A stretch of DNA of 36,857 bases, taken from the NCBI GenBank assembly GCA_035546895.1, contig DASZVW010000040.1, positions 1 to 36,857 on the forward strand, given 5' to 3'. The first letter of the stretch is position 1, and the number at the start of each line of letters is the position of its first letter. The notes beneath the pieces were generated by a model, which was not told the DNA's origin, ran no database searches, and saw only the letters and a list, made by a program, of their open reading frames with translations. The position numbers were made by a program, and so were the translations under genes. This stretch comes from Polyangia bacterium. GTDB taxonomy: Bacteria > Myxococcota_A > Polyangia > Fen-1088. This document shows, one piece after another, positions 11,852 to 36,857 of the stretch.

Positions 11852-11858
11852 CTGCACG

Positions 11859-13464: not shown

Positions 13465-14158
<694 letters not shown>

Positions 14159-14166
<8 letters not shown>

Positions 14167-16986: not shown

Positions 16987-17660
16987 ACCGAGCGGGCGTG
17001 GCGGACGTCCTGACCACGGACGTGATAGATGGTCATCTCGGCGATGTTCGCCACGTGATCGGCCATCCTCTCGATCCGCTGGGCGAAGAGAAGAAGGGCC
17101 ACGCCGCGGTCGATCGCCTCTGGAGCGGACTCCATCTCCGTCTTCACCTCGGCGCAGAGCCGGCGCACGGGCTCCCCGAGAGCCGCAGCATTGGCCAGAA
17201 TCTCCGCCGCCTCGGCCGCATCATTGGCGACGAAGGCGTCGAGCACCTCCCGCAAGAGCTCCTGCGCCCTCTCGGCCAGCCCCGGGATGGCCGACGCCGC
17301 GGGCAGCGGCGGCTGTCCGGCGAGCAACCGGACGCCCTCCGCCATGTTCACCGCCAGGTCCCCGATCCGCTCGAGGTCGGTCACCATCTTGAGCGTCGAC
17401 GCCACGAAGCGCAGGTCCGACGCCTCGGGCTGGTAGAGCGCCAGAACGCGGATGCACTGCTCGTCCACCGCGAGCTCCATCTGGTTCACCGCCCTGTCGG
17501 CGTCGATCACGCGGCCCGCGAGCTCCACGTCCCGTTGTACGAAGGCGCGAACCGAGTCGCTCACGTGCGCGTCGACGAGGTGTCCCATCGCGAGGACCTG
17601 CTCGTTGATGGCTCGCAGCTCGCTTTCGAGGCTGGCGTTCGTGTGGGGTCTGTTGGTCAT
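16983..17660 (-). CDS. phoU: Phosphate signalling complex protein PhoU
   Basis: Two PhoU repeats (INEQVLAMGHLVDAHVSDSVRAF...DADRAVNQMELAVDEQCIRVLALYQPEASDLRFV...DLERIGDLAVNMAE, and a second repeat ending RIERMADHVANIAE). Confidence 0.9.
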   Translation of the reverse strand: MTNRPHTNASLESELRAINEQVLAMGHLVDAHVSDSVRAFVQRDVELAGRVIDADRAVNQMELAVDEQCIRVLALYQPEASDLRFVASTLKMVTDLERIGDLAVNMAEGVRLLAGQPPLPAASAIPGLAERAQELLREVLDAFVANDAAEAAEILANAAALGEPVRRLCAEVKTEMESAPEAIDRGVALLLFAQRIERMADHVANIAEMTIYHVRGQDVRHARSV

Positions 17661-17672
17661 GGCATCCGGAGA

Positions 17673-17688
17673 TGCAATCGGCGCACCG
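17673..17688 (-). promoter_or_regulatory. Candidate sigma-54 -24/-12 promoter, CGGTGCGCCGATTGCA
   Basis: Correct spacing with a perfect TTGCA. The -12 C at 17674 is 14 nt from ATG 17660 of phoU. Confidence 0.5.
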
Positions 17689-17735
17689 ACCTCTCGGAAG
17701 CCGGGACGACCGCCGATTTGTGAGTCGAGCCGACT

Positions 17736-18479
17736 TCACAGACCAATGGCGCCCAGAAGCTTGCCAATCAGCGCGCTGGCGGCCATCGCCAGCCCACCGC
17801 CGATCAGGACGCGGAGAGCGGCGCGCAAACGCGGCCCCCCTCCGAGCGCCGCGCCCGACGCGCCCAGCGCCGCCAGCCCCGCGAGAGACACCAACGCCAC
17901 CCCGATCGACCGGAGAGGAACGGGCGCGATCGCGAAGGTCAAGAGGGGAACCGCGGCCAGCGAGGCAAAGCTCAGGGCAGACACACCCGCCGCCTGTAGG
18001 GGCCGCGCCCGCAAGGACTCACGCAGCCCGAGCTCATCTCGCAGGTGGGCCCGGAGACGATCCTGTGAGCTCAACTGCTCGGCGACCTTCCGAGCCAGCT
18101 CGGGCCCGAGGCCCCGCTTCAGATAGATGTCCGTCAGCTCCGCCAGCTCGCCTGCCGGATCCTCGCGGAGCTGACGGCGCTCGAGGGCGACGTCGGCTTC
18201 CTCGACGTCTCGTTGCGACGAGACGGACACGTACTCGCCCGCCGCCATGGCCAGCGCGCCGGCCACCAGACCCGCGGCGCCGGCGACCAAGACGGCTCCC
18301 TTCGAAGCCGACGCCGACGCCACGCCGATGACCAGGCTGGCCGTCGAGACGACGCCGTCGTCCGCGCCGAGCACAGCCGCGCGCAGCCAACTCCCGCGGC
18401 CGATCCGGTGACGCTGGGCGCGAAATGATTTCGAGCCGACACCGGCGGTCACGGACCGTTCGACCCGCGCGCGCACCAT
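17736..18479 (-). CDS. VIT1/CCC1-family (vacuolar iron transporter-like) membrane protein
   Basis: LRAAVLGADDGVVSTASLVIGVA...MAAGEYVSVSSQRD, then a cytoplasmic helical segment and C-terminal TM helices. An AGGAG SD sits directly after the upstream USP stop. Confidence 0.85.
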   Translation of the reverse strand: MVRARVERSVTAGVGSKSFRAQRHRIGRGSWLRAAVLGADDGVVSTASLVIGVASASASKGAVLVAGAAGLVAGALAMAAGEYVSVSSQRDVEEADVALERRQLREDPAGELAELTDIYLKRGLGPELARKVAEQLSSQDRLRAHLRDELGLRESLRARPLQAAGVSALSFASLAAVPLLTFAIAPVPLRSIGVALVSLAGLAALGASGAALGGGPRLRAALRVLIGGGLAMAASALIGKLLGAIGL

Positions 18480-18488
18480 GGATCTCCT

Positions 18489-18947
18489 CTACGCCGAGCC
18501 GCTCGCGGGGACCACCAGGACCGGGCACTCGCCGTGCTCGACGACCTTCTCGGCGACGCTCCCGATGAAGGCGTGAGCGAGACCGCGCCGCCCGTGCGTC
18601 CCCATCACGATGAGGCCAGCGCCGCTGCGGCGCACCCTCTCGATGATACTCGTCGAGGACCGCCCGAACTCCGAGGCGCTGGTGCAGGAGACGCCCGCCC
18701 GCCGCACCTCGGCCACCACCCGCTCGAGCCTTTCGGCCGTCCGTGCCACCACACGTTCGACCGCGATCGGTCTGGACACGACGTCCACCGGCGGTGGCAA
18801 TAGCAGCGCAGGGTCCGGGTCGACGTGAAAGACTTCGATCGCGGCATGAAATGCCTGCGCCATCCGGACCGCGGTCCGCATCGCCACGGCGGACGCCTCG
18901 GAAAAATCGGTCGGGACCAGGATCAGCTTCAGATTGTCGAAATTCAT
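18489..18947 (-). CDS. Universal stress protein (UspA family)
   Basis: LKLILVPTDFSEAS ... LIVMGTHGRRGLAHAFIGSVAEKVVEHGECPVLVV. The start is set at ATG 18947 (MNFDNL) with a GGAG SD. Confidence 0.85.
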   Translation of the reverse strand: MNFDNLKLILVPTDFSEASAVAMRTAVRMAQAFHAAIEVFHVDPDPALLLPPPVDVVSRPIAVERVVARTAERLERVVAEVRRAGVSCTSASEFGRSSTSIIERVRRSGAGLIVMGTHGRRGLAHAFIGSVAEKVVEHGECPVLVVPASGSA

Positions 18948-18968
18948 AGCGGCTCCGAGCAGCAACGT

Positions 18969-18984
18969 TGCAGCGCCTGTGCCA
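18969..18984 (-). promoter_or_regulatory. Candidate sigma-54 -24/-12 promoter, TGGCACAGGCGCTGCA
   Basis: Perfect TGGCAC with a CTGCA -12. It sits 22 nt upstream of ATG 18947, so the predicted ~11-nt leader contains the GGAG. Confidence 0.6.
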
Positions 18985-19100
18985 GCAAATGCCCTCCCCC
19001 GAGCGGAGGTTCATCGAACGACGCCAGCAATCGGTGCATGGGTGCCGACCTCTCCCGCAAAGTTTTCGCGGTTCCGCACGACGTTGAGCCGCCTCTGCGC

Positions 19101-21874: not shown

Positions 21875-22564
21875 GTGATGCGAACGTCCCGTCGAAGACG
21901 GCTCCAGCCTGACGTGAGCAAGACAAACGTGCCGCCTCGACACCTGATCGCGATCGTGGGCTCGAGGGGAGGCCTGAAGCCCTTGGTGACGATCGTTCGC
22001 GACCTGCCGCTCGATCTGGATGCGGCCGTCGTCGTGTTGATTCACCGAGGCGCTACAACGAAAAGCCATCTCGCGGAGATCCTCTCACGTGCCACCTCCT
22101 TGCCGGTCGCGTTCGCGGTCGACGGCGAGCGCCTCGAGAGAGGCCGGATCTACGTCGTACCACCTGGCGACCGCCACGCCCTGATTCAAGGCCGAACGAT
22201 CCGTCTCGTCGCTGCCCCTCGGGTCCACTATCATCGCCCGGCGGGCGATCCTCTCCTCTATTCGGCCGCCGCCGCGTTCGGCCCCGACGCCATCGGCGTG
22301 ATCTTGAGCGGGATGGGACGAAATGGCGAGGCTGGGGTCGCCGCCATCAAGCAAGGCAGGGGCAAAGTGTTCGTGCAGTCCGTCGTCGAGGCCGAGTACC
22401 CCAGCATGCCGAGACACGCCATGGCCGCAGCCGAGCCAGATGCGTGCCTGATGGCCGCCGAGATTGCGCCGCGGCTGGCGGCTCTGTGCGCGCCTGCAGT
22501 TGTCCCGTTCGAGGCGGCGGACAGAGCTGAGCGCCCACGTCGTCGCGAGCACAGGTCGGCTTGA
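21875..22564 (+). CDS. CheB-type methylesterase-domain protein without a receiver domain
   Basis: IAIVGSRGGLKPL (Ser motif), VVVLIHRG (His motif) and GVILSGMGRNGEAGVAAIKQGRGKVFVQ...PSMPRHA. A GAGAAGGGG SD precedes GTG 21875 / ATG 21878. Confidence 0.8.
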   Translation: MMRTSRRRRLQPDVSKTNVPPRHLIAIVGSRGGLKPLVTIVRDLPLDLDAAVVVLIHRGATTKSHLAEILSRATSLPVAFAVDGERLERGRIYVVPPGDRHALIQGRTIRLVAAPRVHYHRPAGDPLLYSAAAAFGPDAIGVILSGMGRNGEAGVAAIKQGRGKVFVQSVVEAEYPSMPRHAMAAAEPDACLMAAEIAPRLAALCAPAVVPFEAADRAERPRRREHRSA

Positions 22565-22688
22565 GATCCCCGCCCGCCAGATGACGCAGACGCGTCCGAA
22601 GGCGTTGCCCGGCCGACCCGGAGGAGACCTGAAACCGAGCCACTCTGGCGGACCGCCTGAAGCGGATAACGATTGGACGGCGGCGCGC

Positions 22689-22886
22689 TCAGGTCGTTTT
22701 GAGTTCAGGCGTTAGCGCGAGCGTCGCTCGGCCCAGGCTCTCTTCTATTCGGGAGAGGTGTTTCTCGACTTCGGCGTCGACTGCTCCGACGCCGTCGAGA
22801 TGCTTGCGAAGAAGATAGACGGATGTGCGGGCCACCGCGAGCCCCTCGCGTACGACGCGCACCCATTCATCCGACGACGACGCCAT
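22689..22886 (-). CDS. Hypothetical small helical protein (65 aa)
   Basis: ATG-initiated ORF with moderate GC3 in the lower-GC islet. I recognise no family. Confidence 0.3.
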   Translation of the reverse strand: MASSSDEWVRVVREGLAVARTSVYLLRKHLDGVGAVDAEVEKHLSRIEESLGRATLALTPELKTT

Positions 22887-23104
22887 CAGTCCAAAGCCTT
22901 GCGAGGTGACGATCGCTCATCGGCGACGACATCTCGGCTCACTGTTCGCGACATCGTCGACTTCACCTTACGCCTCGTTCGACGCGACATACACCTTACG
23001 AGGAACGGCAATCGACCTCGTACAATGTCTTACGCCCGGCTCGCGATTACGGGTTCACCTGAGACACCCGATCTCCCTGATGAGCGGGCTTTCACGCGAT
23101 GGAT

Positions 23105-23308
23105 CTACGCACGCTTGCCGCGGCGAATCATCAAGTGAAGGAGGCAGGGCCCCCACAGTCCCATCGCTATCGGCAAAAGCCCAATGACCGCGACGACACG
23201 CCCGCCTATCCCCCTCGCTCCCAAGCCGAGATGAATGAGTACGACGCCCAGCGCGACCCGCAGCCCACGACCGAAGGGACGCTCCATGAACTCGAAGACT
23301 TTGTTCAT
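23105..23308 (-). CDS. DUF2892 (YgaP-like) small membrane protein
   Basis: Two TM helices and a C-terminal GLWGPCLLHLMI motif resembling the conserved G-x-C-P-x-Y region of DUF2892. GGAG lies 8 nt before ATG 23308. Confidence 0.6.
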   Translation of the reverse strand: MNKVFEFMERPFGRGLRVALGVVLIHLGLGARGIGGRVVAVIGLLPIAMGLWGPCLLHLMIRRGKRA

Positions 23309-23332
23309 CGTCTTTTCTCCGTCACGGATAAT

Positions 23333-23348
23333 TGCAACGGCGATGCCG
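23333..23348 (-). promoter_or_regulatory. Candidate sigma-54 -24/-12 promoter, CGGCATCGCCGTTGCA
   Basis: Correct spacing with a perfect TTGCA. It sits 25 nt upstream of ATG 23308, so the predicted leader contains the GGAG. Confidence 0.5.
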
Positions 23349-23515
23349 TGGTCAGATCCGCGTGACGCCTCGCCCGATTTCTCGTCGACTGTGCGAAACC
23401 GCGCAAAGGATGCCGGCAAGGACGGCAACCGTGTAGAAGCTGCGCGCTCGCCGCTAGGGAAGCCCGACCGGTCGAAATCGTGCGCCCGGCATCATTGGCT
23501 CTGCTGCGGAGATCG

Positions 23516-24148
23516 TCACTCGAGAGGGGCCCAGCGAGGCGTCGCCTCCTCCCAAGGATTGTCCGTTAGAGACGTAAGCTCTGACCCGTCGGGACGCATG
23601 ACGACGATTTCCCCGTAGGACTGTGGGTTGTGCGGATGCAAGGCCATTTCGTCTTTGAAGCCCGCGCGACCCGACGAAAATGCGATCCATTTTCCGTCCG
23701 GCGACCAGCTGGAGTGGGCGTCATTTCCCGGCAGATGAGTGAGCCGCTTCAAGCCTGTGCCGTCGGGGCGGATGACGTAGATCTCGTAGTCGAGATCTTC
23801 GCGATTGCTGGTGAAGCAAATCCAGTCACCTTGCGGCGACCACTCGGGGAAATTATCCGTTTGGTTGCCTTCGGTCAGCACTTTCACCTCAGCGGTTTCG
23901 ACGTCTACGATGCGCAAGCCCTTGCCGCCCTTGCTCGCTCCTCGGAACACAATCCGCTTGCCGTCGGGAGCCCAGCTCAGGAAGCCGTCGTTGCCGTCGC
24001 CATGTGTGACTTCAGGACGCTCCTCGCGACGGCTGTTTTGAGCCCGAGCGCCGAACAGCCGGCCGACGGTGTCCCCCGGGTTTTCCGAAGTGCCCGAACT
24101 ATCTCGGGAACCTTCGGGAACTGCTCCGGTCTCTCTAACGAGCCGCAA
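23516..24148 (-). pseudogene. PD40/TolB-like beta-propeller protein, N-terminally decayed fragment
   Basis: Three to four PD40 repeats (FLSWAPDGKRIVF, FPEWSPQGDWICFTS, HSSWSPDGKWIAFSS). There is no signal peptide and the only possible start is TTG. PD40-like sequence (VEVIAFSRNS) continues upstream to an in-frame TGA at 24185-24187. Further repeat-like fragments appear in other frames up to about 24330. Confidence 0.5.
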
Positions 24149-24357
24149 ACACTGCGAATTGCGGCTAAACGCGATTACCTCAACTCAGACCAGAACTTAA
24201 TTTCACTTAGGACACCAGCAGTTACCACGAACCAGTTGTTTACCGGCGGAGCCGCGGTCGTTCACTTCGTGAGAAGCTACCCGAGGTTGCCGCCGTAAAT
24301 CCCACCGGCCCGCAGCCGTTTCGGACCAGGGCTGGGCACCCAGTCGTGCTGCTCGGT

Positions 24358-25014
24358 TCAGCGCTCGGGTCCGCGTGCCCTGCCCAACGTCAGCAACTTC
24401 GCGCTGAGCCGCTCTACCCGCTGGCGCAGCATTGGTACCGCCTTGGCCGCGGTCGGGTGCTCCTCGGCCAAATTGATGATGTCGAGGAGATCGATCCGTC
24501 GCTTGCTCGGGCGGCGCGCCGGTTCCTCCGCCGCCGCCAGCTTCAAAATGAGAAGGTCCTTCGGGGACGCGAGCCGAAAGCGGTAGCCACCGGCGTCAAC
24601 CACCTTGGCGCGCGCCACCGCGTCCTCGATCCCCACGTCCTCCGAAGAGAACTGAACGACGGTGCGCTCTTTCTTCGGCCGCGGTCCGGGCGCCCGCCAG
24701 TTGTCACTGTGCTCGTACCGCCCCTCGTGCACGAAGCCCGCCTCGATTAAAGCATCCCGTGGGATGTCATCGAACCGAGCCACCGCCAGATCCACGTCCA
24801 AAGTCGTCCGCGGCTCCTGCGAATAGATCTGAACGGCGACGCCGCCGATCAGCGCGTAGCGGGTACCTGCCGCCTCCAGCACCTTCACCACCGCACGCAA
24901 CGCGCTCTCCTTGGTGTCGCCTTCGGGCAAGCCCATCGTCTCCCTCCAAAGCCGGTCCAGGGCATAGCTCTGCCCCAGCCGATCTCGGACCGCGGCAGCA
25001 GAGGGAGCGCCCAC
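24358..25014 (-). CDS. Nucleotidyltransferase-fold protein (AbiEii/DUF6036-like minimal NTase)
   Basis: YALIGGVAVQIYSQEPRTTLDVDLAV matches the Pol-beta NTase G[GS]-x(n)-DxD signature. GTG start at 25014, with ATG 24936 as an alternative. Confidence 0.6.
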   Translation of the reverse strand: MGAPSAAAVRDRLGQSYALDRLWRETMGLPEGDTKESALRAVVKVLEAAGTRYALIGGVAVQIYSQEPRTTLDVDLAVARFDDIPRDALIEAGFVHEGRYEHSDNWRAPGPRPKKERTVVQFSSEDVGIEDAVARAKVVDAGGYRFRLASPKDLLILKLAAAEEPARRPSKRRIDLLDIINLAEEHPTAAKAVPMLRQRVERLSAKLLTLGRARGPER

Positions 25015-25142
25015 GACCGCAATTATACCTTGGGACGAAAAGCTCAGCCTATCCGGTCAGAAGGGCGCGGCTGCTTACCGCGAATTTGTCGTTTGGAAAG
25101 GTGCCGGAAACAGTCGCGGGTCTATCATGAAGGCAGGCGGAC

Positions 25143-26450
25143 ATGGCACGCGCGACGAACCGGGGCTATCAGGTTCACGACAGCGGCGATCACACGACGC
25201 TCGACGGGATCTTCCGTCTCATCTCGCTCGGTGAACGCGAGGCGCCGCTCGAGGACGTGCTGACCGCGATGTGCGGCGACGTCGCGGCAATCGCCAGCGC
25301 CGACGTGGCCAGCATCTACGTCCGTGAGGACGGGCCCGGCGGCGAGCGGTTCACCATGCGCGGCAACGTCGGCTTCCCGGCCGAGGCGCTCGGGCGCGTG
25401 CACCTCGGCCGCGGCGAGGGGATCACCGGATTCGCGGCCGACCGGCTGCGGCCGGTCTCGGTCGCCGACGCCGATCGCGACGCGCGCTTCAAGTACATCC
25501 CGGGGCTGGGCGAGGAGCGGTTTCCGGCGCTGCTGGCGGTCCCGGTGCTCCGCGCCGGCGCCGCCGCCGGGGTGCTGGTGCTGCAGCGGCGGGTGGCGAA
25601 CGCGTTCACGCCCGAGGAGGTGGCGCTGGCCAGCGCGCTGGCCGCCGTCATCAACCACGCGCTCGAGCGCGGCGAGGGGCGCGCCCGGCAGCACGCCGCC
25701 GCCGCCGACCGGCGGACGGTCCGGCTGGCAGGTGTCTCGATCGTCGGCGGCGCGGCGATGGGGCGCGCCGAGACCTTGCCGACGCTGGCCGCGCTCGCCC
25801 GCGGCGAGACGGCCGCGCGGCCAGTGGAGACCGCCTACCTGGAGACGATCTGGAACCGACTGCGCGGCGAGCTGCAACGCGCGGCGGGCCTGATCGGCGG
25901 CGCGGCGCGCGCGGAGATCGCCTTGTCGGCGATGATCCTCGAGGACGAGCGCTTCCGTGGCCGGCTCGCCGAGGCCTGCGCCGCCCCGGCCCCGCTCAAG
26001 GCGCTCTCCGACCTGGCGCGCGCCTACGCCCGGGTGCCGTTCTCCGGCGCCTCCGGCGACGGGGCGAACGCCGAATGGCTCGGCGCGCGCGCGGCGGAGA
26101 TGGAAGACCTCTGCGTCCTCGTCCACGCGGGCGCGCGCGCGGCGCAGAGCGGGCGGCCGCTGTTTCCTTCCGGCTCCGTTCTGGCCAGCGAGCGCCTCGG
26201 CCTCTTCTCGACGGCCTACGCGATCGCCGCCGGCGCCTCGGCGTTCGTCGTCGACGGCGACGTCCCGGGTGAAGGCGGTCCCGCGGCGCTGGTCCGCGCG
26301 GCCGGCCGGCCGCTCCTCGCCTCGGTGCGCGGCCTCTACGCCTGGCTCCGGCCCGAAGATCTCCTGGTGGTCGATGCCGACGCCGGCGTCGTGCGCATCA
26401 ACCCGCCGGCCACGGCGGTGGCCAGGTTCAGGCAGGCCCGCAGCCCCTAA
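25143..26450 (+). CDS. GAF domain fused to PTS Enzyme I-like N-terminal and swivel domains (truncated PtsP-like protein)
   Basis: GAF: VASIYVREDG...GEGITGFAADRLRPVSVADADRDARFKYIPGLGEERFPALLAVPVLRAGAAAGVLVLQRR. An EI-N-like helical region follows, then a swivel-like end (LLVVDADAGVVRINP). The PEP-binding barrel is absent. Confidence 0.75.
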   Translation: MARATNRGYQVHDSGDHTTLDGIFRLISLGEREAPLEDVLTAMCGDVAAIASADVASIYVREDGPGGERFTMRGNVGFPAEALGRVHLGRGEGITGFAADRLRPVSVADADRDARFKYIPGLGEERFPALLAVPVLRAGAAAGVLVLQRRVANAFTPEEVALASALAAVINHALERGEGRARQHAAAADRRTVRLAGVSIVGGAAMGRAETLPTLAALARGETAARPVETAYLETIWNRLRGELQRAAGLIGGAARAEIALSAMILEDERFRGRLAEACAAPAPLKALSDLARAYARVPFSGASGDGANAEWLGARAAEMEDLCVLVHAGARAAQSGRPLFPSGSVLASERLGLFSTAYAIAAGASAFVVDGDVPGEGGPAALVRAAGRPLLASVRGLYAWLRPEDLLVVDADAGVVRINPPATAVARFRQARSP

Positions 26451-27331
26451 CCGTCCAGGGGCGCCACGTCGACCGAGACGCTCAGTTGATGTTGACCCCC
26501 GCCGAGGAGGACGCCGCGCATCGGCGTCACGTCATCGAAGTCGCGACCGTAGGCGACCGTCAGGTGGCGGTCGGTGGGGATGACGTCGTTGGTGGGGTCG
26601 AGGTCTAGCCAGCCTGCCGGGCCGAAGTGGGGCGAACGGACCGACAGCCAGGCATGCGAAGCGTCGGCGCCCACGACACGTGGCTTGCCGGGCGGCGGCG
26701 TGGTGGCGAGATACCCGCTCACGTAGCGGGCCGGCAAGCCGAGCGCGCGCAGGCAGGCGAGCTGGACGTGCGCGAAGTCCTGGCAGACGCCCCGACCGCC
26801 GCGGAGGACGTCGTCGACGGAGGTCGAGACATCGGTGGCGGTCTGATCGTAGGCGAGCGCCGCGTGAAGTCGACTCATCAGGTCCTGCGCCGCCTCGACC
26901 AGCGGCCGCCCTGGCCGGAACGAGGCCAACGCGAAATCGAGCGCGGCAGGCGACAGCTCGACGTGCGGCGAAGGAAGTATCCACTCACCCGCGGCGCGCG
27001 CCTCCGGATCGGCCGCGCCCTTCACCCAGTCACGCGTCGCCTCCCAAGGACCTCCGTCGCCGGCCGGTGGGGGCGGCGACGTCACCTCCAAGTCGGCTTC
27101 GGAGGTGACGGTCAGGCTGGTGTGACGCTCGTGAATGGCGAGGTGGGTGGCGCGGTTGCCGAACCAGTCGAAGCGATCGCGCCGCACCGCCGGCGCCGGA
27201 TCGACTCGCAGCGACTCGGTGCGAATCCGCTGCCACGGTCCGCCGTGCAGGAGGACATGTAGCTCGTGGTGCGAGGTGGAGACCGGAACGCTGTAACGGT
27301 AGGCGGTGACGTGTTTGACTCGGTAGATCAT
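26447..27331 (-). CDS. Transglutaminase-family protein (Bact_transglu_N plus transglutaminase core)
   Basis: N-terminus MIYRVKHVTAYRYSVPV. Cys-His-Asp core: GRGVCQDFAHV, DASHAWLSV, LDLDPTN. Its start overlaps the upstream gene's stop by 4 nt. Confidence 0.9.
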   Translation of the reverse strand: MIYRVKHVTAYRYSVPVSTSHHELHVLLHGGPWQRIRTESLRVDPAPAVRRDRFDWFGNRATHLAIHERHTSLTVTSEADLEVTSPPPPAGDGGPWEATRDWVKGAADPEARAAGEWILPSPHVELSPAALDFALASFRPGRPLVEAAQDLMSRLHAALAYDQTATDVSTSVDDVLRGGRGVCQDFAHVQLACLRALGLPARYVSGYLATTPPPGKPRVVGADASHAWLSVRSPHFGPAGWLDLDPTNDVIPTDRHLTVAYGRDFDDVTPMRGVLLGGGQHQLSVSVDVAPLDG

Positions 27332-29928
27332 GCGCCGATCTCCGGGGAGGCCAGCGCGCGGGAAATTGTCGCCGGCGTCAAATAGGCGGAGAACAGCGCA
27401 TCGGACAGCGACTGCAACCTGCGCACCAGGTCGGCGAGCAGCGCGCCCAGCGCCGGCCTACCTCCGTCCGCGGGCGCGCAGACGGCCTCCACGTCGAGGA
27501 GTCGGATCTCGGAGAGCACTTCGTGGGCCAGCCGCTCTTCCAGGCTACGCCGGGCACCCGCCGCGTCGCGCGGCAGTGCGCTGACGTGATCGGCCAGCGC
27601 CGCCAACTGGAAGACGATGGCGCGCGGGTTCCGGTCGTCGCTCACCAGGAGATCGACCACCGGCGCCACCTGCAACGTCGCGCGGTAGCGGCGCCGGTAG
27701 GTCATGGCGCTGTCGGCCGCGGCCAGCAGCGCTTCCAAGAGCGGCAGCTCCTCGTCGGTCGCCGCGTGGGGCAACGTCCGTTCGATCATCAACGCCGTAT
27801 TGAGCGCGCGCTCGAGCCGGCGGCCCATGTCCAGGAACCGCCAGGGCGCCTCGCGCGTCATGCTCTCCGAGGTCAGCCCGGAGAGCCCGGCCAGGATCAT
27901 GACCACCCGATCGAGGCGGGCGCCGAGGACGACCGGTCGTTCGTCGGCACCGCCCCGCACGGCATCGGCCAGCTCGTGCGCCAGCGCCGACACGGCCGTC
28001 CAGGTATCCATGGACAAGCGATCGCGGATGGCGCGCGCCACCCGATCGACCGCCCGGCCCGAGGCGATCAGCGAGCCAGACACAGCCTCGTCGAACAGCG
28101 CCTCGCGCATGATCCGACTCGAGGCCGCGACCTCGGCCTGCGGCGGCAGGGCGGTGAGGTCGGTCCCCGAGGCGACCATGGTCAAGGCGCGGAGCGCCGC
28201 TACCAGCGGCGCCAGGTCGCCGGCCAGGAACTGCGGATCGCGGGGCTCGGCGAGCCGCGTGCAGATGATCCGCCCCAGACGCGCGATCGCCTCCGCCCGC
28301 TCGGCGTAGCGCCCGAGCCAGAAGAAGTTGTCGGCCACCCGGCTCGGCAGGTCGCCTCCCCCGCGGGTCAGCTCGACCGGCTCGACGGTCGGGCGCAGCA
28401 GCGAGAACTCGCTGACCGGGCTGTCGCTGATCACCCAGGTGTCCTTGCTGCGGGCGCCGCGCGCGATCGAGATGTCGGCCTCCCCCGCTCCGCCGCAGAG
28501 CCCCAGCGCGCCGGGCATCACCTGGTAACCCCGCCCTCCGTCGGCGACGACGAAGCTGCGCAGCACGACCGGCCGTGGTCTGAGATCGTCCCCCTCGATG
28601 ACCGGGACGGTCGAAGGCGCTACCTGCCGCTGCGCCACCCAGCGCCCCGGCGCCGCCTGGATGGTGGCCGCCAGGTTGTCGAGCGCGCCGCGATCGAGCC
28701 GGCCGGCGAAGATGGGGTCGGTCGGACCGAGGGGATAGGTCGGCTTGATCACCATCTCGGGCAGGTGGGCGAGCACGTGCGCCAGGATCTCCGGCTGGCC
28801 GCACCACCAGGTCTCCACCGACGCCAGCTTCAGCTCCTCGCCCAGCAGCAGGCGGCAGATCCCGGGCAGGAACGGGATCAGCGCCGGCGTCTGCAGGACG
28901 CCGGTGCCGAGCGCGTTGGCGACGGCGACGGCCCCGTCGCGCGCGGCCTGCAGGAGCCCCGGCACGCCGAGCAGCGAGTCGGGGCGCAGCTCGAGCGGGT
29001 CGCAGTAGTCGTCGCGCAGCCGGCGCAGGATGACGTCGACGGGATGCAGACCGCCCAGCGTCTTCAGGAACACGCGCCCGTCGCGCACGGTGAGATCGCC
29101 CCCCTCGACGAGCGGGTAGCCGAGGTACTGCGCGAGGAACGCCTGCTCGAAGTAGGTGGCGTTGTGGGCCCCGGCGGTCAGCAGCACGATGCGCGGATTG
29201 GACACGCCGTGCGGGGCCAGCGCGGCCAGCGTCTCGCGAAGGGTCCGGAAGAACAGCGCCAGCCGCTGGGTGTTGGAGTCGCGGAACGCCTCCGGCAGCA
29301 CGCGCCCGAGGACGATCCGGTTCTCCAGCGCGTAGCCGGCTCCGGCCGGCGCTTGCGTCCGGTCGGCCATCACCCGCAGCGTCCCCTCGGGCGTGCGCGC
29401 CAGGTCCGCGGCGTAGAAGTGCAGGAACTGCCCGCCCGGCGGCTGCGACCCGGCGCAGGCCCGCAGCAGGTTGGGGTGGGCGAGGAAGACCTCCGGCGGG
29501 ACGATCCCCTCGGCGATGGTGCGCCGCGGGCCGTAGAGATCGGCCAGCAGCCGGTCGAGCAACATCGCCCGCTGCGCGAGGCCCGCCGCCAGCGCGGCCC
29601 ACTCGTCGGCCGCCAGCAGCACCGGGATCGGGTCGAGCGGCCAAGGGCGCTCGAGCCCCCGCGGATCGCCGTAGACGTTGAACGTGACCCCGTGCTGGCG
29701 GATCAGCTGGCGCGCCTGCTCCCATCGCCGCCACAGCTCACCGGGCCCGAAGGCGCCCAGCGCGCGCTCGAGGACCTGCCAGTGCGGGCGCACGGCGCCG
29801 TCGGGCGCCCGCATCTCGTCCCAGGGTGGGACGGATGACGTGACGGGTGCCACCGCCGCGTTGCGCGTGGAGGCCTCCCCCGGCGGCGCGCCGGGCGCCT
29901 CGTGCGGTTCTCCGTGAATGTCGGCCAA
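27328..29928 (-). CDS. Circularly permuted type-2 ATP-grasp domain fused to an Alpha-E domain
   Basis: WDEMRAPDGAVRPHW...GVTFNVYGD...PGLLQAARDGAVAVANALGTGVLQTPALIPFLP, then Alpha-E (SRVADNFFWLGRYAERAE). It is paralogous to 30031-32519. The TTG start at 29928 is uncertain; GTG 29853 is an alternative. Confidence 0.88.
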   Translation of the reverse strand: MADIHGEPHEAPGAPPGEASTRNAAVAPVTSSVPPWDEMRAPDGAVRPHWQVLERALGAFGPGELWRRWEQARQLIRQHGVTFNVYGDPRGLERPWPLDPIPVLLAADEWAALAAGLAQRAMLLDRLLADLYGPRRTIAEGIVPPEVFLAHPNLLRACAGSQPPGGQFLHFYAADLARTPEGTLRVMADRTQAPAGAGYALENRIVLGRVLPEAFRDSNTQRLALFFRTLRETLAALAPHGVSNPRIVLLTAGAHNATYFEQAFLAQYLGYPLVEGGDLTVRDGRVFLKTLGGLHPVDVILRRLRDDYCDPLELRPDSLLGVPGLLQAARDGAVAVANALGTGVLQTPALIPFLPGICRLLLGEELKLASVETWWCGQPEILAHVLAHLPEMVIKPTYPLGPTDPIFAGRLDRGALDNLAATIQAAPGRWVAQRQVAPSTVPVIEGDDLRPRPVVLRSFVVADGGRGYQVMPGALGLCGGAGEADISIARGARSKDTWVISDSPVSEFSLLRPTVEPVELTRGGGDLPSRVADNFFWLGRYAERAEAIARLGRIICTRLAEPRDPQFLAGDLAPLVAALRALTMVASGTDLTALPPQAEVAASSRIMREALFDEAVSGSLIASGRAVDRVARAIRDRLSMDTWTAVSALAHELADAVRGGADERPVVLGARLDRVVMILAGLSGLTSESMTREAPWRFLDMGRRLERALNTALMIERTLPHAATDEELPLLEALLAAADSAMTYRRRYRATLQVAPVVDLLVSDDRNPRAIVFQLAALADHVSALPRDAAGARRSLEERLAHEVLSEIRLLDVEAVCAPADGGRPALGALLADLVRRLQSLSDALFSAYLTPATISRALASPEIGA

Positions 29929-30030
29929 CTTAGGAGGTCCGAGGTTAATGAAAGGTTTCGAGACGGATCAAATACCGTAAACGGGCCGCGCCGCCATGGT
30001 CTGCGCCGCGCGCATTTCCTAGGATGGCCC

Positions 30031-31535
<1,505 letters not shown>

Positions 31536-31539
<4 letters not shown>

Positions 31540-32519
31540 TCTCCCGGGTGGCCGACCACTGCTTCTGGCTCGGCCGCTACGTCGAGCGCGCCGAGAGCAG
31601 CGCGCGCCTCCTGCAGGTGACCCGCACGCTGGCCTTCGACGCCGAGCTGCCGCCGCTCCATTGCTGGCGGCCGCTGGTGATCGTGTCGGGGCAGTACCCG
31701 GACCTGGCCGGGCAGATGGGCGCGGAGGCGGCGGGCGACGGCGAAGCGGTCCAGCGCTACATGACCTGGGCGCCCAACAACCCGGTGTCGATCCGCAACT
31801 CGATCCGCGCCGCGCGCGAGGGGGCGCGCTCGATCCGTGAGGTGATCGGCCACGACATCTGGGAGGCGACCAACGAGCTCTACCTCTGGTTCATGAGCGA
31901 GGGAGGCGCCGCGCAGTACCTGCAGGACCGCGACGAGGTCTACAGGCACATCCGCCGCTCGACCCAGCTGACGCTCGGCCTCGTGCGCAGCACCATGATG
32001 CACGACGAGCCGATGGACTTCCTGTGGCTCGGCGTGATGCTCGAACGCGTCGGCCAGACCGCCCGCACGCTGGACATGCACTTCCACATCCGCGGCGCCG
32101 CCGAGAGCCAGGCCCAGCCGCTGCTGCAGAACGCGCTCTCGCTGTCGCTCCTGCGCGCCTGCTCCGGCTTCGAGGCCTACATGCGCAAGCAACAGGGGCG
32201 CGTCAGCGGCGAGACCGTGAGCGCGTTCCTGCTCTTCGACGACCGGTTCCCGAGGTCGTTGCGCTACTGCCTGCGTACGGCCCTGGCGCTGATCAAGCGC
32301 CTCCCCGCTTCGCGCAGCGGGGGGATCCTGGCCGCGCGAAGGCGCCTCGACGCCCTCGACCAGTGGCTGGACGGCCAGGAGAAGAACGGCGCCTCCCCGG
32401 CCGAGCACCGGCTCCTCACCCGGGTGGTCGACGAGACCGCGGAGATCTGTGGCGAGGTCCAGAGCGGCTTTCAGGGCGAGCCGCCGGCGGCGCTCTCCCA
32501 GCCGGAAGCGGCGCAGTAG
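31536..32519 (+). CDS. Alpha-E domain protein
   Basis: VISRVADHCFWLGRYVERAESSARLL... The GTG overlaps the upstream stop (GTGA, 31536-31539). Confidence 0.88.
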
Positions 32520-32534
32520 CGTGGTCCCCTCGGC

Positions 32535-35500
32535 ATGAGCATCCGCGTCGCGCTCACCCACACCTCACGTTACCGCTACGACCGGGAGGTCACGCTGCAG
32601 CCGCACCTCGTGCGCCTGCGCCCCGCGCCGCATGGCCGCGCGCCGATCGTCAGCTACGCCATGCAGGTGACGCCCGGGGACCACTTCCTCAACTGGCAGC
32701 AGGATCCGTTCGGCAATTACCAGGCGCGGCTGGCATTTCCCAGTCCTGCGCGCGAGCTCAGCGTGGTGGTCGATCTGGTGGCCGACATGGTCGCCGTCAA
32801 CCCATTCGACTTCTTCATCGAGGCGTACGCCGAGAAGTACCCGTTCCGCTACGAACCCTCGCTGGCCCGCGAGCTGGCCCCGTACCTGACCCAGTCGCCG
32901 CCCGCGCCGCGGTTCTGCGCGCTCATCGAAGAGGTACACAACCGGCACGCGCGCCCGGGCCGCCGCAACGTCGACGTGCTGGTCGACATCAATCGCGACA
33001 TCTCGGGGCGGCTCCGCTACGACCTGCGGATGGAGCCGGGCGTGTTCGAGCCCGAGGAGACGCTCACGCGCGGCCACGGGTCGTGTCGCGACTTCGCCTG
33101 GCTCGAGGTCGAGCTGCTGCGGCGGCTCGGCTACGCGGCGCGCTTCGTCTCCGGCTATTCGATCCAGCTCAAGCCGGACGTCAAGCCGCTCGACGGCGGC
33201 CCGGCGGGCGTCGCCGAGGACGTCGCCGACCTGCACGCCTGGACAGAGGTCTACCTCCCCGGCTCGGGGTGGATTGGGCTCGACGCCACCAGCGGCCTCC
33301 TGGCCGGGGAGGGGCACATCCCGCTGGCTGCCACCGCCTGGCTGTCGACGGCCGCGCCGATCACCGGATCGTTCGCCTTCCAACCGAAAGTGGAGGGAGA
33401 GCGGGTCGGCGAGGAGGCCACCTTCGCCCTCCGCGTCCAGCGTATCGCCGAGGCGGCGCGCGTCACCAAGCCGTACCGCGATGACCAGTGGGCAGCGATC
33501 GACGCGCTCGGCGCGGCCGTCGATCGCGATCTCGAGCGCTACGACGTGCGGCTGACCATGGGGGGCGAGCCGACGTTCGTCTCCATCGACGACCGCGACG
33601 CGCCCGAGTGGAACACCGCCGCGCTCGGCGATGGGAAGCGGAACCTGGCGGACCAGCTGGTTCGACGGCTGCGCGCCCGCTTCGCACCGGGCGGGCTGCT
33701 GCACCACGGTCAGGGGAAGTGGTACCCGGGCGAGCCGCTCCCCCGGTGGGCCTACACCTGCTACTTCCGTCGCGACGGTGAGCCGGTCTGGAGCGATCCG
33801 GCGCTGTTCGCCGAGGAGCGCTCTGCCCGCCCCGCGGTCGATGCCGACGCGCGGGGGTTCGTGACCGAGCTGGCTCGGCGGTTGGGCCTGGCGGATGATG
33901 CGGCGCAGGCCGCCTTCGAGGACGCCTTCTACTACCTTTGGCGCGAGCGCCGCCTCCCGAGCAACGTCGACGTGCTGGAGAGCCGCCTCGACGATCCGAT
34001 CGAGCGCGCGCGGCTGGCGCGGGTGTTCGACGCCGGCCTCGGCGCCACGGCCGGCTACGTCCTCCCACTGCGCGCGCGCCTGATCGAGGGCGACGGCGCG
34101 GCGCCGCTGGTGTTCTGGGAGAGCGGCCGCTGGTCGGTGCGCGCCGACCACCTCTTCCTCGTCCCCGGCGATTCGCCGATGGGGTTCCGGCTGCCGCTCG
34201 ACGGTCTGCCCTGGGAAGCCGAGGAGACGCGCCACACGATCCACGAGCGCGATCCGCTCGAGGCCCGGCCGCCGCTTGGCACGACCATCCAGCGCGGACC
34301 GCGACCGGCGGCGCCGGCGACGGGCGAGGTCGGGGCGCCGCCGACCGAGATCGTCCGCACCGCTCTCTGCGTCGAGCGGCGCGACGGGCTCCTGCACGTC
34401 TTCATGCCGCCGCTCGATCACCTCGAGGAGTACCTGGCGCTGGTGGCCGCCGTCGAGGACGTGGCGCGCGCGCGGGCGCAGCCGGTGCGCATCGAGGGCT
34501 ACCACCCGCCGCGCGATCACCGGCTCGAGCGCCTGTCCGTCACACCCGATCCCGGCGTCATCGAGGTGAACGTCCATCCGGCCCGGAGCTGGGCGGACCT
34601 TTCGCGGACCACGACGGCGCTCTACGAGGAGGCGCGGCTCTGCCGGCTCGGCACCGAGAAGTTCATGCTCGACGGGCGGCACACCGGCACCGGCGGCGGC
34701 AACCACGTGGTGCTGGGCGGCCCGACGCCGGGCGACAGCCCGTTCCTCCGCCGCCCCGATCTGCTGCGCAGCCTGGTCGGCTACGTCCTCAACCACCCGT
34801 CGCTGTCGTATCTCTTCTCGGGCCTCTTCGTGGGACCGACCAGCCAGGCGCCGCGTCTCGACGAGGCCCGCCAGGACAGCGTGCACGAGCTGGAGCTCGC
34901 GTTTGGCGAGGTGCCGCGCGAGGGCGCCGCGCCGCCGTGGCTGGTCGATCGGATCTTCCGCAACTTGCTGGTCGACGTCACGGGCAACACCCACCGCGCC
35001 GAGATCTGCATCGACAAGCTCTACAGCCCCGACAGCGCCAGCGGACGGCAGGGGCTGGTCGAGCTGCGCGCGTTCGAGATGCCGCCGCACCCGCAGATGA
35101 GCCTCACGCAGCAGCTCCTCCTGCGCGCCCTGATCGCCTGGTTCTGGCGCGCCCCGTACGTCCGAAGACCGGTGCGCTGGGGGACGGCCCTCGCCGATCG
35201 CTTCACCCTCCCCCACTTCGTGGCCCAGGACCTCGAGGACGTGCTCGACGATCTGCGCGCGGCGGGCTACCCGTTCGCCAGCAACTGGTTCCGCGCCCAC
35301 CACGACTTCCGGTTCCCGCTGGCCGGCGCGATCGCCGTCGACGGCGTCGCGCTGGAGCTGCGTACCGCGATCGAGCCCTGGCACGTGCTCGGCGAGGAGC
35401 CGGGCGCGGGCGGCACCGTCCGCTACGTCGACTCCTCGGTCGAGCGGCTGGAGGTCAAGGCCCGCGGCCTGGTCGAGAGCCGGCACGTGCTCGCCTGCAA

Positions 35501-35864
35501 CGGGCGCCGCCTCCCCCTCCATCCGACCGGCTCGCCCGGCGAGGCGGTGGCCGGGCTGCGCTTCCGCGCCTGGCAGCCGGCCTCGGCGCTGCACCCGACG
35601 ATCGGCGTCCACGCGCCGCTCATCCTGGACGTGATCGACACCTGGACGGGCCGCGCGATCGGCGGCTGCACGTACCACGTCGCGCACCCTGGCGGGTTGG
35701 CGCACGAGCGCCTGCCGGCCAACGCGCTGGAGGCCGAGGGCCGCCGCATCGCCCGCTTCTTCCCTTTCGGTCACACGCCCGGGCCTCAGGAGGCGCCGCC
35801 CGAGGAGCGCAACCCCGACTTCCCCTTCACGCTTGATCTGCGCCGTCCGCCGCCCCGCGGTTAG
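32535..35864 (+). CDS. Large transglutaminase-family protein (Bact_transglu_N, transglutaminase core and a DUF2126-type C-terminal region)
   Basis: N-terminus MSIRVALTHTSRYRYDREV. Core: GHGSCRDFAWL, DLHAWTEVYL, GLDATSG. A ~800-aa extension follows, as is typical of the ~1100-aa members. Confidence 0.9.
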   Translation: MSIRVALTHTSRYRYDREVTLQPHLVRLRPAPHGRAPIVSYAMQVTPGDHFLNWQQDPFGNYQARLAFPSPARELSVVVDLVADMVAVNPFDFFIEAYAEKYPFRYEPSLARELAPYLTQSPPAPRFCALIEEVHNRHARPGRRNVDVLVDINRDISGRLRYDLRMEPGVFEPEETLTRGHGSCRDFAWLEVELLRRLGYAARFVSGYSIQLKPDVKPLDGGPAGVAEDVADLHAWTEVYLPGSGWIGLDATSGLLAGEGHIPLAATAWLSTAAPITGSFAFQPKVEGERVGEEATFALRVQRIAEAARVTKPYRDDQWAAIDALGAAVDRDLERYDVRLTMGGEPTFVSIDDRDAPEWNTAALGDGKRNLADQLVRRLRARFAPGGLLHHGQGKWYPGEPLPRWAYTCYFRRDGEPVWSDPALFAEERSARPAVDADARGFVTELARRLGLADDAAQAAFEDAFYYLWRERRLPSNVDVLESRLDDPIERARLARVFDAGLGATAGYVLPLRARLIEGDGAAPLVFWESGRWSVRADHLFLVPGDSPMGFRLPLDGLPWEAEETRHTIHERDPLEARPPLGTTIQRGPRPAAPATGEVGAPPTEIVRTALCVERRDGLLHVFMPPLDHLEEYLALVAAVEDVARARAQPVRIEGYHPPRDHRLERLSVTPDPGVIEVNVHPARSWADLSRTTTALYEEARLCRLGTEKFMLDGRHTGTGGGNHVVLGGPTPGDSPFLRRPDLLRSLVGYVLNHPSLSYLFSGLFVGPTSQAPRLDEARQDSVHELELAFGEVPREGAAPPWLVDRIFRNLLVDVTGNTHRAEICIDKLYSPDSASGRQGLVELRAFEMPPHPQMSLTQQLLLRALIAWFWRAPYVRRPVRWGTALADRFTLPHFVAQDLEDVLDDLRAAGYPFASNWFRAHHDFRFPLAGAIAVDGVALELRTAIEPWHVLGEEPGAGGTVRYVDSSVERLEVKARGLVESRHVLACNGRRLPLHPTGSPGEAVAGLRFRAWQPASALHPTIGVHAPLILDVIDTWTGRAIGGCTYHVAHPGGLAHERLPANALEAEGRRIARFFPFGHTPGPQEAPPEERNPDFPFTLDLRRPPPRG

Positions 35865-35867: not shown

Positions 35868-36170
35868 TCAGTCGACGGCGCGCGCGCCGGCCGTCAGACG
35901 GCGGGACAGGAGGGGGACCGTCGTGCCAAAGAGTCCGGCGAGACGCTCGAGATCGCCTCCGCACGCCTCTTTTTCGTAAAGAAGTATCGGCAGCGACACG
36001 CACGCCAGCCGGTGGAGCTCGGGCCATCGCGTGACCCGGCGCCAGAAGGTGCCGCGCGAGATCCCCAGGAGCTGGGCAGCGCGTCCTCGATTCCAGTTGG
36101 AATCCTCGAAAGCCGAGAGGATCTGCTCGGCGGTCGGCCCTCCGCCCGGCGATGGCTGCGGCGTCTGCAT
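35868..36170 (-). CDS. Small Fis-type (HTH_8) DNA-binding protein
   Basis: AEQILSAFEDSNWNRGRAAQLLGISRGTFWRRV resembles the C-terminal HTH of NtrC-type activators. No AAA+ or receiver domain is present. The 100-aa ORF starts next to an AT-rich patch. Confidence 0.5.
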   Translation of the reverse strand: MQTPQPSPGGGPTAEQILSAFEDSNWNRGRAAQLLGISRGTFWRRVTRWPELHRLACVSLPILLYEKEACGGDLERLAGLFGTTVPLLSRRLTAGARAVD

Positions 36171-36285: not shown

Positions 36286-36857
36286 ATGGGCAGGACGCGG
36301 GACGCCGACCGGACGCGGGAGCAGATCCTACGCGCGGCGACGAGTGAGTTCGCGGCGCACGGCTACAGCGGCGCCCGGGTGGAGCGCATCCGGCGGCGCG
36401 CGCGGGTCAACACCCGCATGATCTATCACTACTTCGGCGACAAGAGCCGCCTCTACGTCGCCGTCCTGGAGCGCACGATCGGTGACCTGCGCCAGGAGGA
36501 GCTGCGGCTGGAGGTCGACGACGTCGACCCGCTGGAGGGCTTGCTGCAACTGTTCGAGTTCGTCGACCGCCACTTCGCCAACCACCCGGAGCTGATCACG
36601 CTGCTCAGCGGGGAGAACCTGCTGCGCGGGCGCTTCATGCGCAGCACCACCACGCCGCCGATCGTCAGCTCGCCGCTCATGCCCCTCATCGAGGAGCTGC
36701 TCCGCCGCGGCGAGCGCAAGGGCCAGATCCGCGCCGGCGTCGATCCGCTGCACCTCTACATCGCCATGGTGGGGCTCTGCTACTTCCTCCGTTCGAACGC
36801 CCACACCCTCTCCTTCCTGTTCCGGACCGACCTCCTATCGGCACGATGGCGAGGCGA
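36286..36857 (+). CDS. TetR/AcrR-family transcriptional regulator; the 3' end lies outside the window
   Basis: MGRTRDADRTREQILRAATSEFAAHGYSGARVERIRRRARVNTRMIYHYFGDKSRLY is a canonical TetR N-terminal HTH. The frame is open to the window end. Confidence 0.85.
   Translation, partial: MGRTRDADRTREQILRAATSEFAAHGYSGARVERIRRRARVNTRMIYHYFGDKSRLYVAVLERTIGDLRQEELRLEVDDVDPLEGLLQLFEFVDRHFANHPELITLLSGENLLRGRFMRSTTTPPIVSSPLMPLIEELLRRGERKGQIRAGVDPLHLYIAMVGLCYFLRSNAHTLSFLFRTDLLSARWRG

Follow-up and report, generated by a model that had tools for sequence, protein, structure and literature searches.

The five genes at positions 26447-35864 of a 36,857-nucleotide stretch of Polyangia DNA (GCA_035546895.1, contig DASZVW010000040.1; the whole stretch is termed the window) are one copy of a widespread amidoligase cluster. 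The cluster consists of circularly permuted (cp) ATP-grasp, Alpha-E, transglutaminase-like and glutamine synthetase (GS)-like (DUF2126) proteins. In this genome, from the Polyangia (Myxococcota), the five genes are divided between two divergent operons. The cluster is not new; it had already been predicted from genome comparisons in 2008-2009, is annotated by domain and is present in thousands of genomes. The copy in the window differs from others in its gene arrangement but not in kind. As judged from sequence, it has intact versions of three predicted ATP-dependent ligase-type domains, of two thiol transglutaminase-like domains and of two Alpha-E partners, and these are genetically linked across phyla. 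The best explanation, toward which the evidence leans modestly, is a cytoplasmic cycle of ATP-driven amide ligation and thiol-amidase cleavage that would be tied to nitrogen scavenging.

Gene content and domain assignments

The minus-strand operon consists of FUS, a fusion of cpATP-grasp and Alpha-E, followed by the transglutaminase-like protein TGs. The plus-strand operon encodes a stand-alone cpATP-grasp (GRASP), an Alpha-E protein (ALPHAE) and a large protein that joins a transglutaminase-like part to DUF2126, here called the DUF2126 protein (Table 1). Open reading frames (ORFs) found in the window agree with the deposited gene calls (294, 866, 502, 327 and 1109 amino acids). Pfam matches for TGs are to Bact_transglu_N (1.7e-20) and Transglut_core (2.3e-19), those for FUS to CP_ATPgrasp_2 (3e-144) and Alpha-E (8.7e-73), that for GRASP to CP_ATPgrasp_2 (1.2e-159) and that for ALPHAE to Alpha-E (9.5e-71). 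The DUF2126 protein matches Bact_transglu_N (3.5e-23), Transglut_core (7e-16) and DUF2126 (E=0, 1280 bits), the last over positions 6-826 of the 826-position model. NCBIfam gave no match for any of the five proteins. The gene calls of a Polyangia metagenome-assembled genome (MAG) record (GCA_964568375.1, CAZMRV010000306.1, 105 kb) carry these same Pfam domains. The Alpha-E gene has a domain-based name there already, and close homologues of the large protein are labelled 'transglutaminase family protein'.

Translational coupling can be read directly from the sequence. The ATG start of TGs lies within the FUS stop (gcATGAtc, 27328-27331), and the start of ALPHAE lies within the GRASP stop (tcGTGAtc, 31536-31539). 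The fusion in FUS and the 4-nt overlaps indicate that grasp and Alpha-E are obligate partners. In alignments the FUS start codon and the residues next to it (M-x-x-I-H) are kept in relatives, as either TTG or GTG.

The gene set, coordinates and family assignments of the original prediction, which was made from the sequence alone, agree with these results, as do the coupling of FUS to TGs and the GTGA overlap. The motif pairs quoted there as signs of paralogy are present in the translations, and all three paralogous pairs are significant by BLASTP (below). The lower-GC control region of ~100 bp that the operons were said to share corresponds to the 102-bp spacer. That prediction had also offered the locus as a candidate for a functionally undescribed multi-gene system, which does not hold for a widespread cluster already annotated by domain.

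Table 1. Features of the cluster in the window
Feature	Position (nt)	Strand	Residues	Remarks
TGs	26447-27331	-		294 aa; transglutaminase-like Cys-His-Asp protein, Bact_transglu_N + Transglut_core
FUS	27328-29928	-		866 aa; cpATP-grasp + Alpha-E fusion; TTG start at 29928
FUS, cpATP-grasp domain	28504-29625	-	102-475	Pfam
FUS, Alpha-E domain	27379-28350	-	527-850	Pfam
Divergent spacer	29929-30030	.		102 bp, lowered GC; presumed common promoter/operator region
Conserved non-coding element GTTAATGAAAGGTTTCgagacGGATCAAATACCGTAAAC	29944-29982	+		39 nt; from relatives' alignments
GRASP	30031-31539	+		502 aa; stand-alone cpATP-grasp; GTG start, AGGA six nt 5'
ALPHAE	31536-32519	+		327 aa; Alpha-E protein
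DUF2126 protein	32535-35864	+		1109 aa; transglutaminase-like + DUF2126
DUF2126 protein, N-terminal transglutaminase-like part	32550-33287	+	6-251	
DUF2126 protein, C-terminal DUF2126/GS-like carboxylate-amine ligase part	33414-35843	+	294-1103	

Residues that are invariant in these families are intact, and all five proteins look cytoplasmic, with no N-terminal hydrophobic segment in any of them. Across 175 grasp domains of both types, 25 columns are at least 95% identical, and GRASP and FUS keep all 25. The Alpha-E motif FWLGRYxERAE is found in both window proteins, with W11, G13, R14, Y15, R18 and E20 invariant. The putative catalytic triad of TGs (C183/H226/D245) falls in columns that are at least 95% conserved among 115 sequences, and that of the DUF2126 protein (C184/H234/D250) is invariant among 45 homologues.

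The sole solved relative is PDB 3n6x, a structural-genomics cpATP-grasp deposited as a 'putative glutathionylspermidine synthase', which matches FUS with E 8e-94. None of the five proteins has a match to the Pfam family GSP_synth. The AlphaFold2 (AF2) model of the DUF2126 region has a predicted local distance difference test score (pLDDT) of 74 and a predicted template modelling (TM) score of 0.76. A Foldseek search with this model returned glutamine synthetases and Dop (5lrt) as top PDB matches, all of them weak; the best was GS 2wgs (E 0.055, probability 0.90). These fold matches are consistent with the published placement in the carboxylate-amine ligase superfamily, and are not proof of it. 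The AF2 model of ALPHAE is all-helical (pLDDT 70.6), and a fold search with it against the PDB gave nothing meaningful (best E ~1, TM <0.25).

Some DUF2126 homologues of ~770-840 amino acids (P0246, P0273, P0274 and P0290) align only from query residue ~290-310. These could be GS-like ligases that stand alone, with no transglutaminase-like domain, or the result of truncated gene calls.

Age of the paralogous genes

Each minus-strand domain has a paralogue on the plus strand. By BLASTP, FUS and GRASP are 37% identical over 467 amino acids (E 3e-88), the C-terminal part of FUS and ALPHAE are 30% identical (E 1e-16), and TGs and the N-terminal part of the DUF2126 protein are 28% identical (E 3e-15). 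The sequences indicate that the paralogues are ancient lineages and not the products of a local duplication: identity between FUS-type and GRASP-type domains does not exceed 45%, yet GRASP proteins from other phyla share 47% identity or more with the window GRASP. In a neighbour-joining tree the GRASP type forms a clean clade. Cross-phylum identity is 54-64% over 1100 amino acids for DUF2126 and ~50-55% for GRASP.

Gene order in other bacteria

Two scans of one-genome-per-species collections yielded 159 loci, onto which the five window proteins were mapped by tblastn. FUS is followed by TGs in 64 of 68 FUS-anchored loci and in 40 of 42 DUF2126-anchored loci, and DUF2126 is followed by FUS in 42 of 66. 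GRASP-ALPHAE adjoins DUF2126 in 23 of 64 loci; ALPHAE precedes it co-directionally in 15 of the 64 and GRASP precedes it divergently in eight. The unit seen most often is DUF2126-FUS-TGs, to which GRASP-ALPHAE may or may not be added. The DUF2126 family, COG4196, is large, with 2,671 clusters (50% identity level) at E<=1e-30.

All five genes are present in one locus in 12 of 41 DUF2126-anchored and 8 of 50 FUS-anchored loci that are well flanked. Their arrangement varies. The orders GRASP-ALPHAE-DUF2126-FUS-TGs and DUF2126-FUS-TGs-GRASP-ALPHAE are found, and in other loci ALPHAE and GRASP are on one strand, divergent from either DUF2126-FUS-TGs or FUS-TGs-DUF2126. The exact order of the window is absent from all 159 loci. 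By record title, the five-gene loci belong to Myxococcota, Planctomycetota, Verrucomicrobiota, Acidobacteriota, Desulfobacterota and Pseudomonadota. The presence of the five genes together in about six phyla and in several orders argues that the two halves are functionally linked. Smaller sets are found as well, with FUS-TGs alone in 23 Sphingomonas loci and DUF2126 alone in 12 loci.

In the closest relatives (83-85% nucleotide identity), collinearity with the window is confined to 26460-32520, which is the four-gene head-to-head core. Synteny is limited to this core and broken at both of its ends in eight loci (L001, L002, L004, L007, L011, L016, L019 and L042), so the window genome appears to be rearranged on either side. 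DUF2126 is on another contig in three close relatives (L080, L082 and L131) and follows TGs in four loci (L008, L009, L035 and L049). Among close relatives it follows ALPHAE in the window alone.

The counts given here add to the earlier genome comparisons in that they show fused-type modules, split-type modules and DUF2126 travelling together across phyla, and they provide evidence for DUF2126-FUS-TGs as the natural core. The original prediction had viewed the locus as two divergent paralogous modules. Co-location of the five genes in many phyla upholds the linkage, and the paralogy also stands. The proposed division into FUS-TGs and GRASP-ALPHAE-DUF2126 does not, given the usual place of DUF2126 ahead of FUS-TGs, and the GS-like ligase domain of DUF2126 has no counterpart on the other arm.

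Clustering of neighbouring ORFs revealed no further universally conserved partner. A cluster of short-chain dehydrogenases (SDR) was rejected as a partner, as the family is generic and its distances are variable. The sole recurring neighbour is phosphoenolpyruvate carboxylase, which is found in two lineages. Its gene is convergent to TGs in eight Polyangia relatives (in L001 at 13809-16496, minus strand). In two Verrucomicrobia it lies between ALPHAE and DUF2126 on the same strand (L142, 2442-5198(+); L144, 953-3709(+)). This placement may be a hint of a link to carbon/nitrogen balance, or a coincidence.

The divergent spacer

The spacer between FUS and GRASP has a GC content of 0.56-0.59, as against 0.72-0.80 in its flanks. 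It contains a conserved 39-nt element of the form GTTAATGAAAGGTTTC-N5-GGATCAAATACCGTAAAC. The element is near-invariant in ~20 Polyangia loci where the proteins are 72-88% identical to those of the window, and across these ~20 genomes it exceeds the flanking coding DNA in conservation. A small palindrome, CCGTAAACGG, lies inside it, and among relatives its two arms vary in concert. The head-to-head GRASP|FUS junction and the element are kept throughout the Polyangia clade. In more distant Myxococcota a degenerate form is found 5' of GRASP; the divergent partner there is DUF2126, not FUS. The element is read here as a putative promoter/operator. It is a small new item in Polyangia and could serve to find the regulator of the cluster in that group.

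A scan of 185,579 genomes placed every Polyangia match to the element on a cluster-bearing contig, with one match per contig. As a regulon marker the element was therefore rejected; in Polyangia it marks this locus only, and the matches in other taxa look like chance. A second conserved block at 30006-30030 (ATAGATTGCG...TTTTCTAGGATT in relatives) comprises the GRASP 5' leader and ribosome-binding site.

Scans of the spacer found no sigma-70 consensus and no terminator. No Rfam family was matched at threshold, with a sub-threshold chance match only. RNAalifold predicted no conserved structure (-1.65 kcal/mol), and a leader RNA or riboswitch in the spacer was accordingly rejected. A 10-codon ORF at 29948-29980(+), MKGFETDQIP*, is preceded by AGGAGG at 29932-29937. 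It was considered as a substrate peptide and rejected, as its ATG is changed to ACG in L004, L005, L007 and L010; the AGGAGG is not conserved either. Across relatives the spacer has no conserved small ORF or tag gene.

Reports on homologous systems

An operon of COG2308 (ATP-grasp), COG2307 (now Alpha-E), COG1305 (transglutaminase) and the proteasome homologue Anbu was described by Valas & Bourne in 2008 (PMC3235984), and genomes that do not have Anbu also carry the other operon genes (PMC3235984). In the current nomenclature DUF404/407 is CP_ATPgrasp_1 and DUF403 is Alpha-E (PMC3597751). Iyer et al. 2009, as cited in two later papers (PMC5666114, PMC6376114), saw in the operon a system for peptide synthesis or tagging; the original prediction was right to credit this view to the Aravind group's amidoligase analyses. 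Rv2566 of Mycobacterium tuberculosis was described as a protein in which a transglutaminase-like domain is joined to one of the carboxylate-amine ligase type, and no Pup-like ORF was seen in its vicinity (Iyer et al. 2008, PMC2588565). The ATP-grasp protein of the Yersinia bercovieri Anbu operon frees orthophosphate from ATP (PMC6376114). Anbu activity was not detected in that study, whose authors state that the published hypotheses are unconfirmed (PMC6376114). Rv2569c has been reported as a surface 'serine protease' that is located in the cell wall and cleaves casein and E-cadherin, a report that is contested (PMC11081392).

Several homologous clusters respond to nitrogen. The Mycobacterium smegmatis genes msmeg_4567/4569/4570 may be orthologues of this system. 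They were up 3.1-3.5-fold under nitrogen starvation (PMC4222082). When nitrogen was limiting, an ntrC mutant of Burkholderia cenocepacia expressed all four genes of the cluster I35_5080-83 at levels 6-9.4-fold lower, and these genes are also sigma-54-dependent (PMC5491218). Pseudomonas putida PP2685-87 were up 6.6-11-fold under nitrogen versus carbon limitation (PMC3325844). The domains of the cluster also co-vary with those of urea metabolism in marine metagenomes (PMC3597751). The original prediction held that no substrate, product or phenotype had been established. As to substrate and product this agrees with the literature; as to phenotype it is outdated by the ntrC, nitrogen-limitation and phosphate-release reports and by the contested protease report.

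Proposed function

The cycle of amide ligation and cleavage put forward above might operate as follows. Each cpATP-grasp would work with an Alpha-E partner, to which it is fused in FUS and coupled through translation in GRASP/ALPHAE, and would turn a carboxylate into an acyl-phosphate and join it to an amine. The GS-like domain of the DUF2126 protein might form a second amide bond, of the gamma-glutamyl type, also via an acyl-phosphate. The two Cys-His-Asp transglutaminase-like domains would hydrolyse or transfer amide or isopeptide bonds. All would act on a common, ubiquitous nitrogen-containing substrate, which could be a small amine, an amino acid or a peptide, and possibly protein side chains. 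Such a cycle would be used under nitrogen scarcity and would probably serve the capture or mobilisation of nitrogen, because homologous clusters are induced by nitrogen limitation via NtrC/sigma-54.

With modest confidence, a ubiquitous small substrate or peptide is favoured over lineage-specific proteins. This preference stems from the high cross-phylum conservation of DUF2126 and GRASP, from the absence of a tag gene and from the parallel with the nearest analogues, glutathionylspermidine synthetase/amidase (GspSA) and PuuA/PuuD, which assimilate amines by gamma-glutamylation.

Several points weigh against such a cycle. When a 24-sequence grasp profile was compared with the PDB, 3n6x alone was found at E<=1 and glutathionylspermidine synthetase was not reached, so the small-molecule analogy is architectural only. 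The GS-like assignment leans on Pfam and published profile work, with the fold matches all at E >0.05. DUF2126 is unlinked from the four-gene core in several close relatives. Nitrogen regulation has been shown in Proteobacteria only, not in Myxococcota. By eye, a sigma-54 (-24/-12) promoter is not evident in the spacer, and in relatives GG and TTGC stand 2 nt too close together for one; the conserved spacer element is moreover specific to this locus. In the literature searched, no substrate or product is given and no mutant phenotype is reported for any member. When Rv2411c and Rv2567 were expressed in Escherichia coli, no GABA-trehalose was made, this being the sole assay tried (bioRxiv 10.64898/2026.04.15.718621).

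The explanation of Iyer et al. 2009, protein tagging, is the strongest alternative and still a live one, though considered unlikely here. According to it the ligases modify target proteins at carboxylates or lysines with an amino acid or a short peptide, and the transglutaminase-like peptidases, with Anbu if present, remove the tag or process the tagged proteins, as in pupylation or the tubulin-tyrosine-ligase (TTL) system. GS-like ligases related to PafA/Dop are among the fold matches (5lrt), the superfamily searches that recovered PafA also returned Rv2566 (PMC2588565), papain-fold enzymes often act on proteins, and in other genomes the cluster is associated with Anbu (PMC5666114, PMC3235984). 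Against tagging, the locus has no tag gene, the sole small spacer ORF being the one that loses its ATG in four relatives, and Iyer et al. 2008 likewise saw no Pup-like ORF near Rv2566 (PMC2588565). Anbu, too, is missing from the window and from the loci checked: there was no Anbu/proteasome-type Pfam match in the window ORFs scanned, and no Anbu in ORFs beside the extra transglutaminase-like genes of L089, L103, L109 and L118. The original prediction, which had seen neither Anbu nor a small substrate-peptide gene, is sustained on both counts. Co-expression of Anbu with the other operon proteins also gave no different form of Anbu (PMC5666114). A related and quite unlikely idea is that of a nitrogen-starvation protein-modification machine that needs no tag gene. 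Its ligases would add amino-acid or gamma-glutamyl tags and its transglutaminase-like enzymes would erase or transfer them, marking proteins for turnover; the two grasp/Alpha-E ligases would differ in specificity, with the GS-like ligase in addition. If true, thousands of genomes would encode a bacterial equivalent of pupylation or polyglutamylation.

It is very doubtful that the cluster makes a cyanophycin-like non-ribosomal peptide polymer or storage compound, with the ligases building a backbone and side branches and the thiol peptidases mobilising it. The presence of three ligase active sites, drawn from two folds, and of two hydrolase-type domains would suit such a product, as would the regulation of homologous clusters by nitrogen status and the phosphoenolpyruvate carboxylase (oxaloacetate to aspartate supply) that adjoins the cluster in Polyangia and is inside the operon in two Verrucomicrobia. 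Yet storage polymers are normally made in nitrogen excess, not limitation, and the case is purely one of analogy. Nor is any such polymer known to have been reported from the many cultured carriers. Equally doubtful is that FUS-TGs and GRASP-ALPHAE-DUF2126 are independent neighbouring systems with no common target. The solitary FUS-TGs pairs of Sphingomonas (23 loci), the 12 solitary DUF2126 loci and the location of DUF2126 on another contig in the closest relatives agree with independence, but the recurrence of five genes in about six phyla and in varied orders is hard to explain unless linkage is selected, and the GRASP|FUS junction and the 39-nt element are conserved throughout the Polyangia clade. 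Lastly, TGs could be a surface or secreted protease that acts on external proteins, as claimed for Rv2569c from its cell-wall localisation and its cleavage of casein and E-cadherin (PMC11081392), with the ligases unrelated to that role. This is extremely improbable. TGs lacks both a signal peptide and any hydrophobic segment, and its translation is coupled to that of a cytoplasmic ligase. The activity reported for Rv2569c, a putative homologue of TGs, is insensitive to E-64 and N-ethylmaleimide and sensitive to serine-protease inhibitors, which misfits a Cys-His-Asp triad; the claim also suits the cytoplasmic nature of the family poorly.

According to the literature, the system is present in the pathogens M. 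tuberculosis and B. cenocepacia and in Pseudomonas. It is costly in ATP and responsive to nitrogen and has had no substrate assigned for about 17 years; to solve it would fill a gap in the biology of bacterial nitrogen use or protein modification. The window copy itself adds little to this end. It comes from an uncultured Polyangia MAG, has the same domains, and is no more testable than the copies in cultured, tractable bacteria.

Neighbouring genes

A 435-amino-acid GAF-domain protein is encoded at 25143-26450(+) and ends four nucleotides inside the 3' end of TGs (convergent overlap 26447-26450). A homologue that is 71% identical is found in L007, 6.7 kb off and on the opposite side of the cluster. 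Convergent to DUF2126 is a gene for a 100-amino-acid protein with only a Fis-type HTH_8 domain (35868-36170(-)), and after it lies a gene for a TetR-family regulator (36286-36855(+)). A role for the HTH_8 and TetR genes as regulators of the cluster is unsupported, since neither is syntenic in relatives. PADLOC matched no defence-system model to any of the five cluster proteins.

The region ~22000-25100 has a GC content of 0.61-0.66, versus ~0.70-0.74. This low-GC stretch contains a stand-alone CheB methylesterase domain (21875-22564(+)), an AbiEii/DUF2204-type nucleotidyltransferase (24358-25014(-)), a short Tricorn/PD40-like fragment (from the deposited gene calls) and ORFs that have no Pfam match. 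It may be a small acquired island beside the cluster.

The window is rich in stress genes, with three universal-stress-protein genes, a P-type cation ATPase and a CBS-pair protein (748-1801(-), 18489-19010(-), 4084-6660(-) and 7205-7660(+)). PhoU and VIT1 genes are found at 16983-18488. At 9069-12020(-) a 983-amino-acid protein is encoded that is a fusion of an ADP-forming acyl-CoA synthetase (CoA_binding, Succ_CoA_lig and ATP-grasp_5) with a GNAT acetyltransferase. It resembles Pat-type protein acetyltransferases and has an ATP-grasp domain, but is unrelated to the cluster.

Comparison with known systems

The M. tuberculosis genes are likened to those of the window by description. They form two groups, Rv2566-Rv2567...Rv2569c and Rv2409c-Rv2411c, and their gene order and pairing are unlike those of the window. 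Rv2567 we take to be a cpATP-grasp + Alpha-E fusion. Rv2411c and Rv2567 have been handled as ATP-binding candidate enzymes (bioRxiv 10.64898/2026.04.15.718621). Rv2566 joins a transglutaminase-like and a carboxylate-amine ligase domain, as does the window DUF2126 protein (PMC2588565). The 'serine protease' report for Rv2569c is at odds with the fold.

The Pup ligase and depupylase, PafA/Dop, have the GS-like carboxylate-amine ligase fold in common with the DUF2126 protein, Dop (5lrt) being a weak fold match. Unlike these, the window has no Pup-like gene, proteasome or AAA ATPase, and DUF2126 is fused to a thiol-peptidase-like domain. In GspSA and PuuA/PuuD the bond made by an ATP-dependent amide ligase is undone or processed by a cysteine amidase, much as in the cycle proposed here. 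Their hydrolase folds are CHAP or GATase, as opposed to transglutaminase-like, and the analogy is one of logic only.

The B. cenocepacia H111 cluster I35_5080-83 (BCAM1233-1236), matched by annotation names, encodes a cpATP-grasp, an Alpha-E protein, a transglutaminase-like protein and a large transglutaminase-like protein. This set equals the plus-strand operon of the window plus TGs. The four-gene cluster does not have the fused FUS, and its sigma-54/NtrC control was not found in the window. The Anbu operon (COG2308, COG2307 and COG1305) has the same three families in the same order and with the same coupling (grasp, Alpha-E, transglutaminase-type), and both are cytoplasmic. The window differs from it in that there is no gene for Anbu, an NTN hydrolase, in that Alpha-E is followed by the large transglutaminase + DUF2126 protein and not by a short transglutaminase, and in that it has a second, fused copy.

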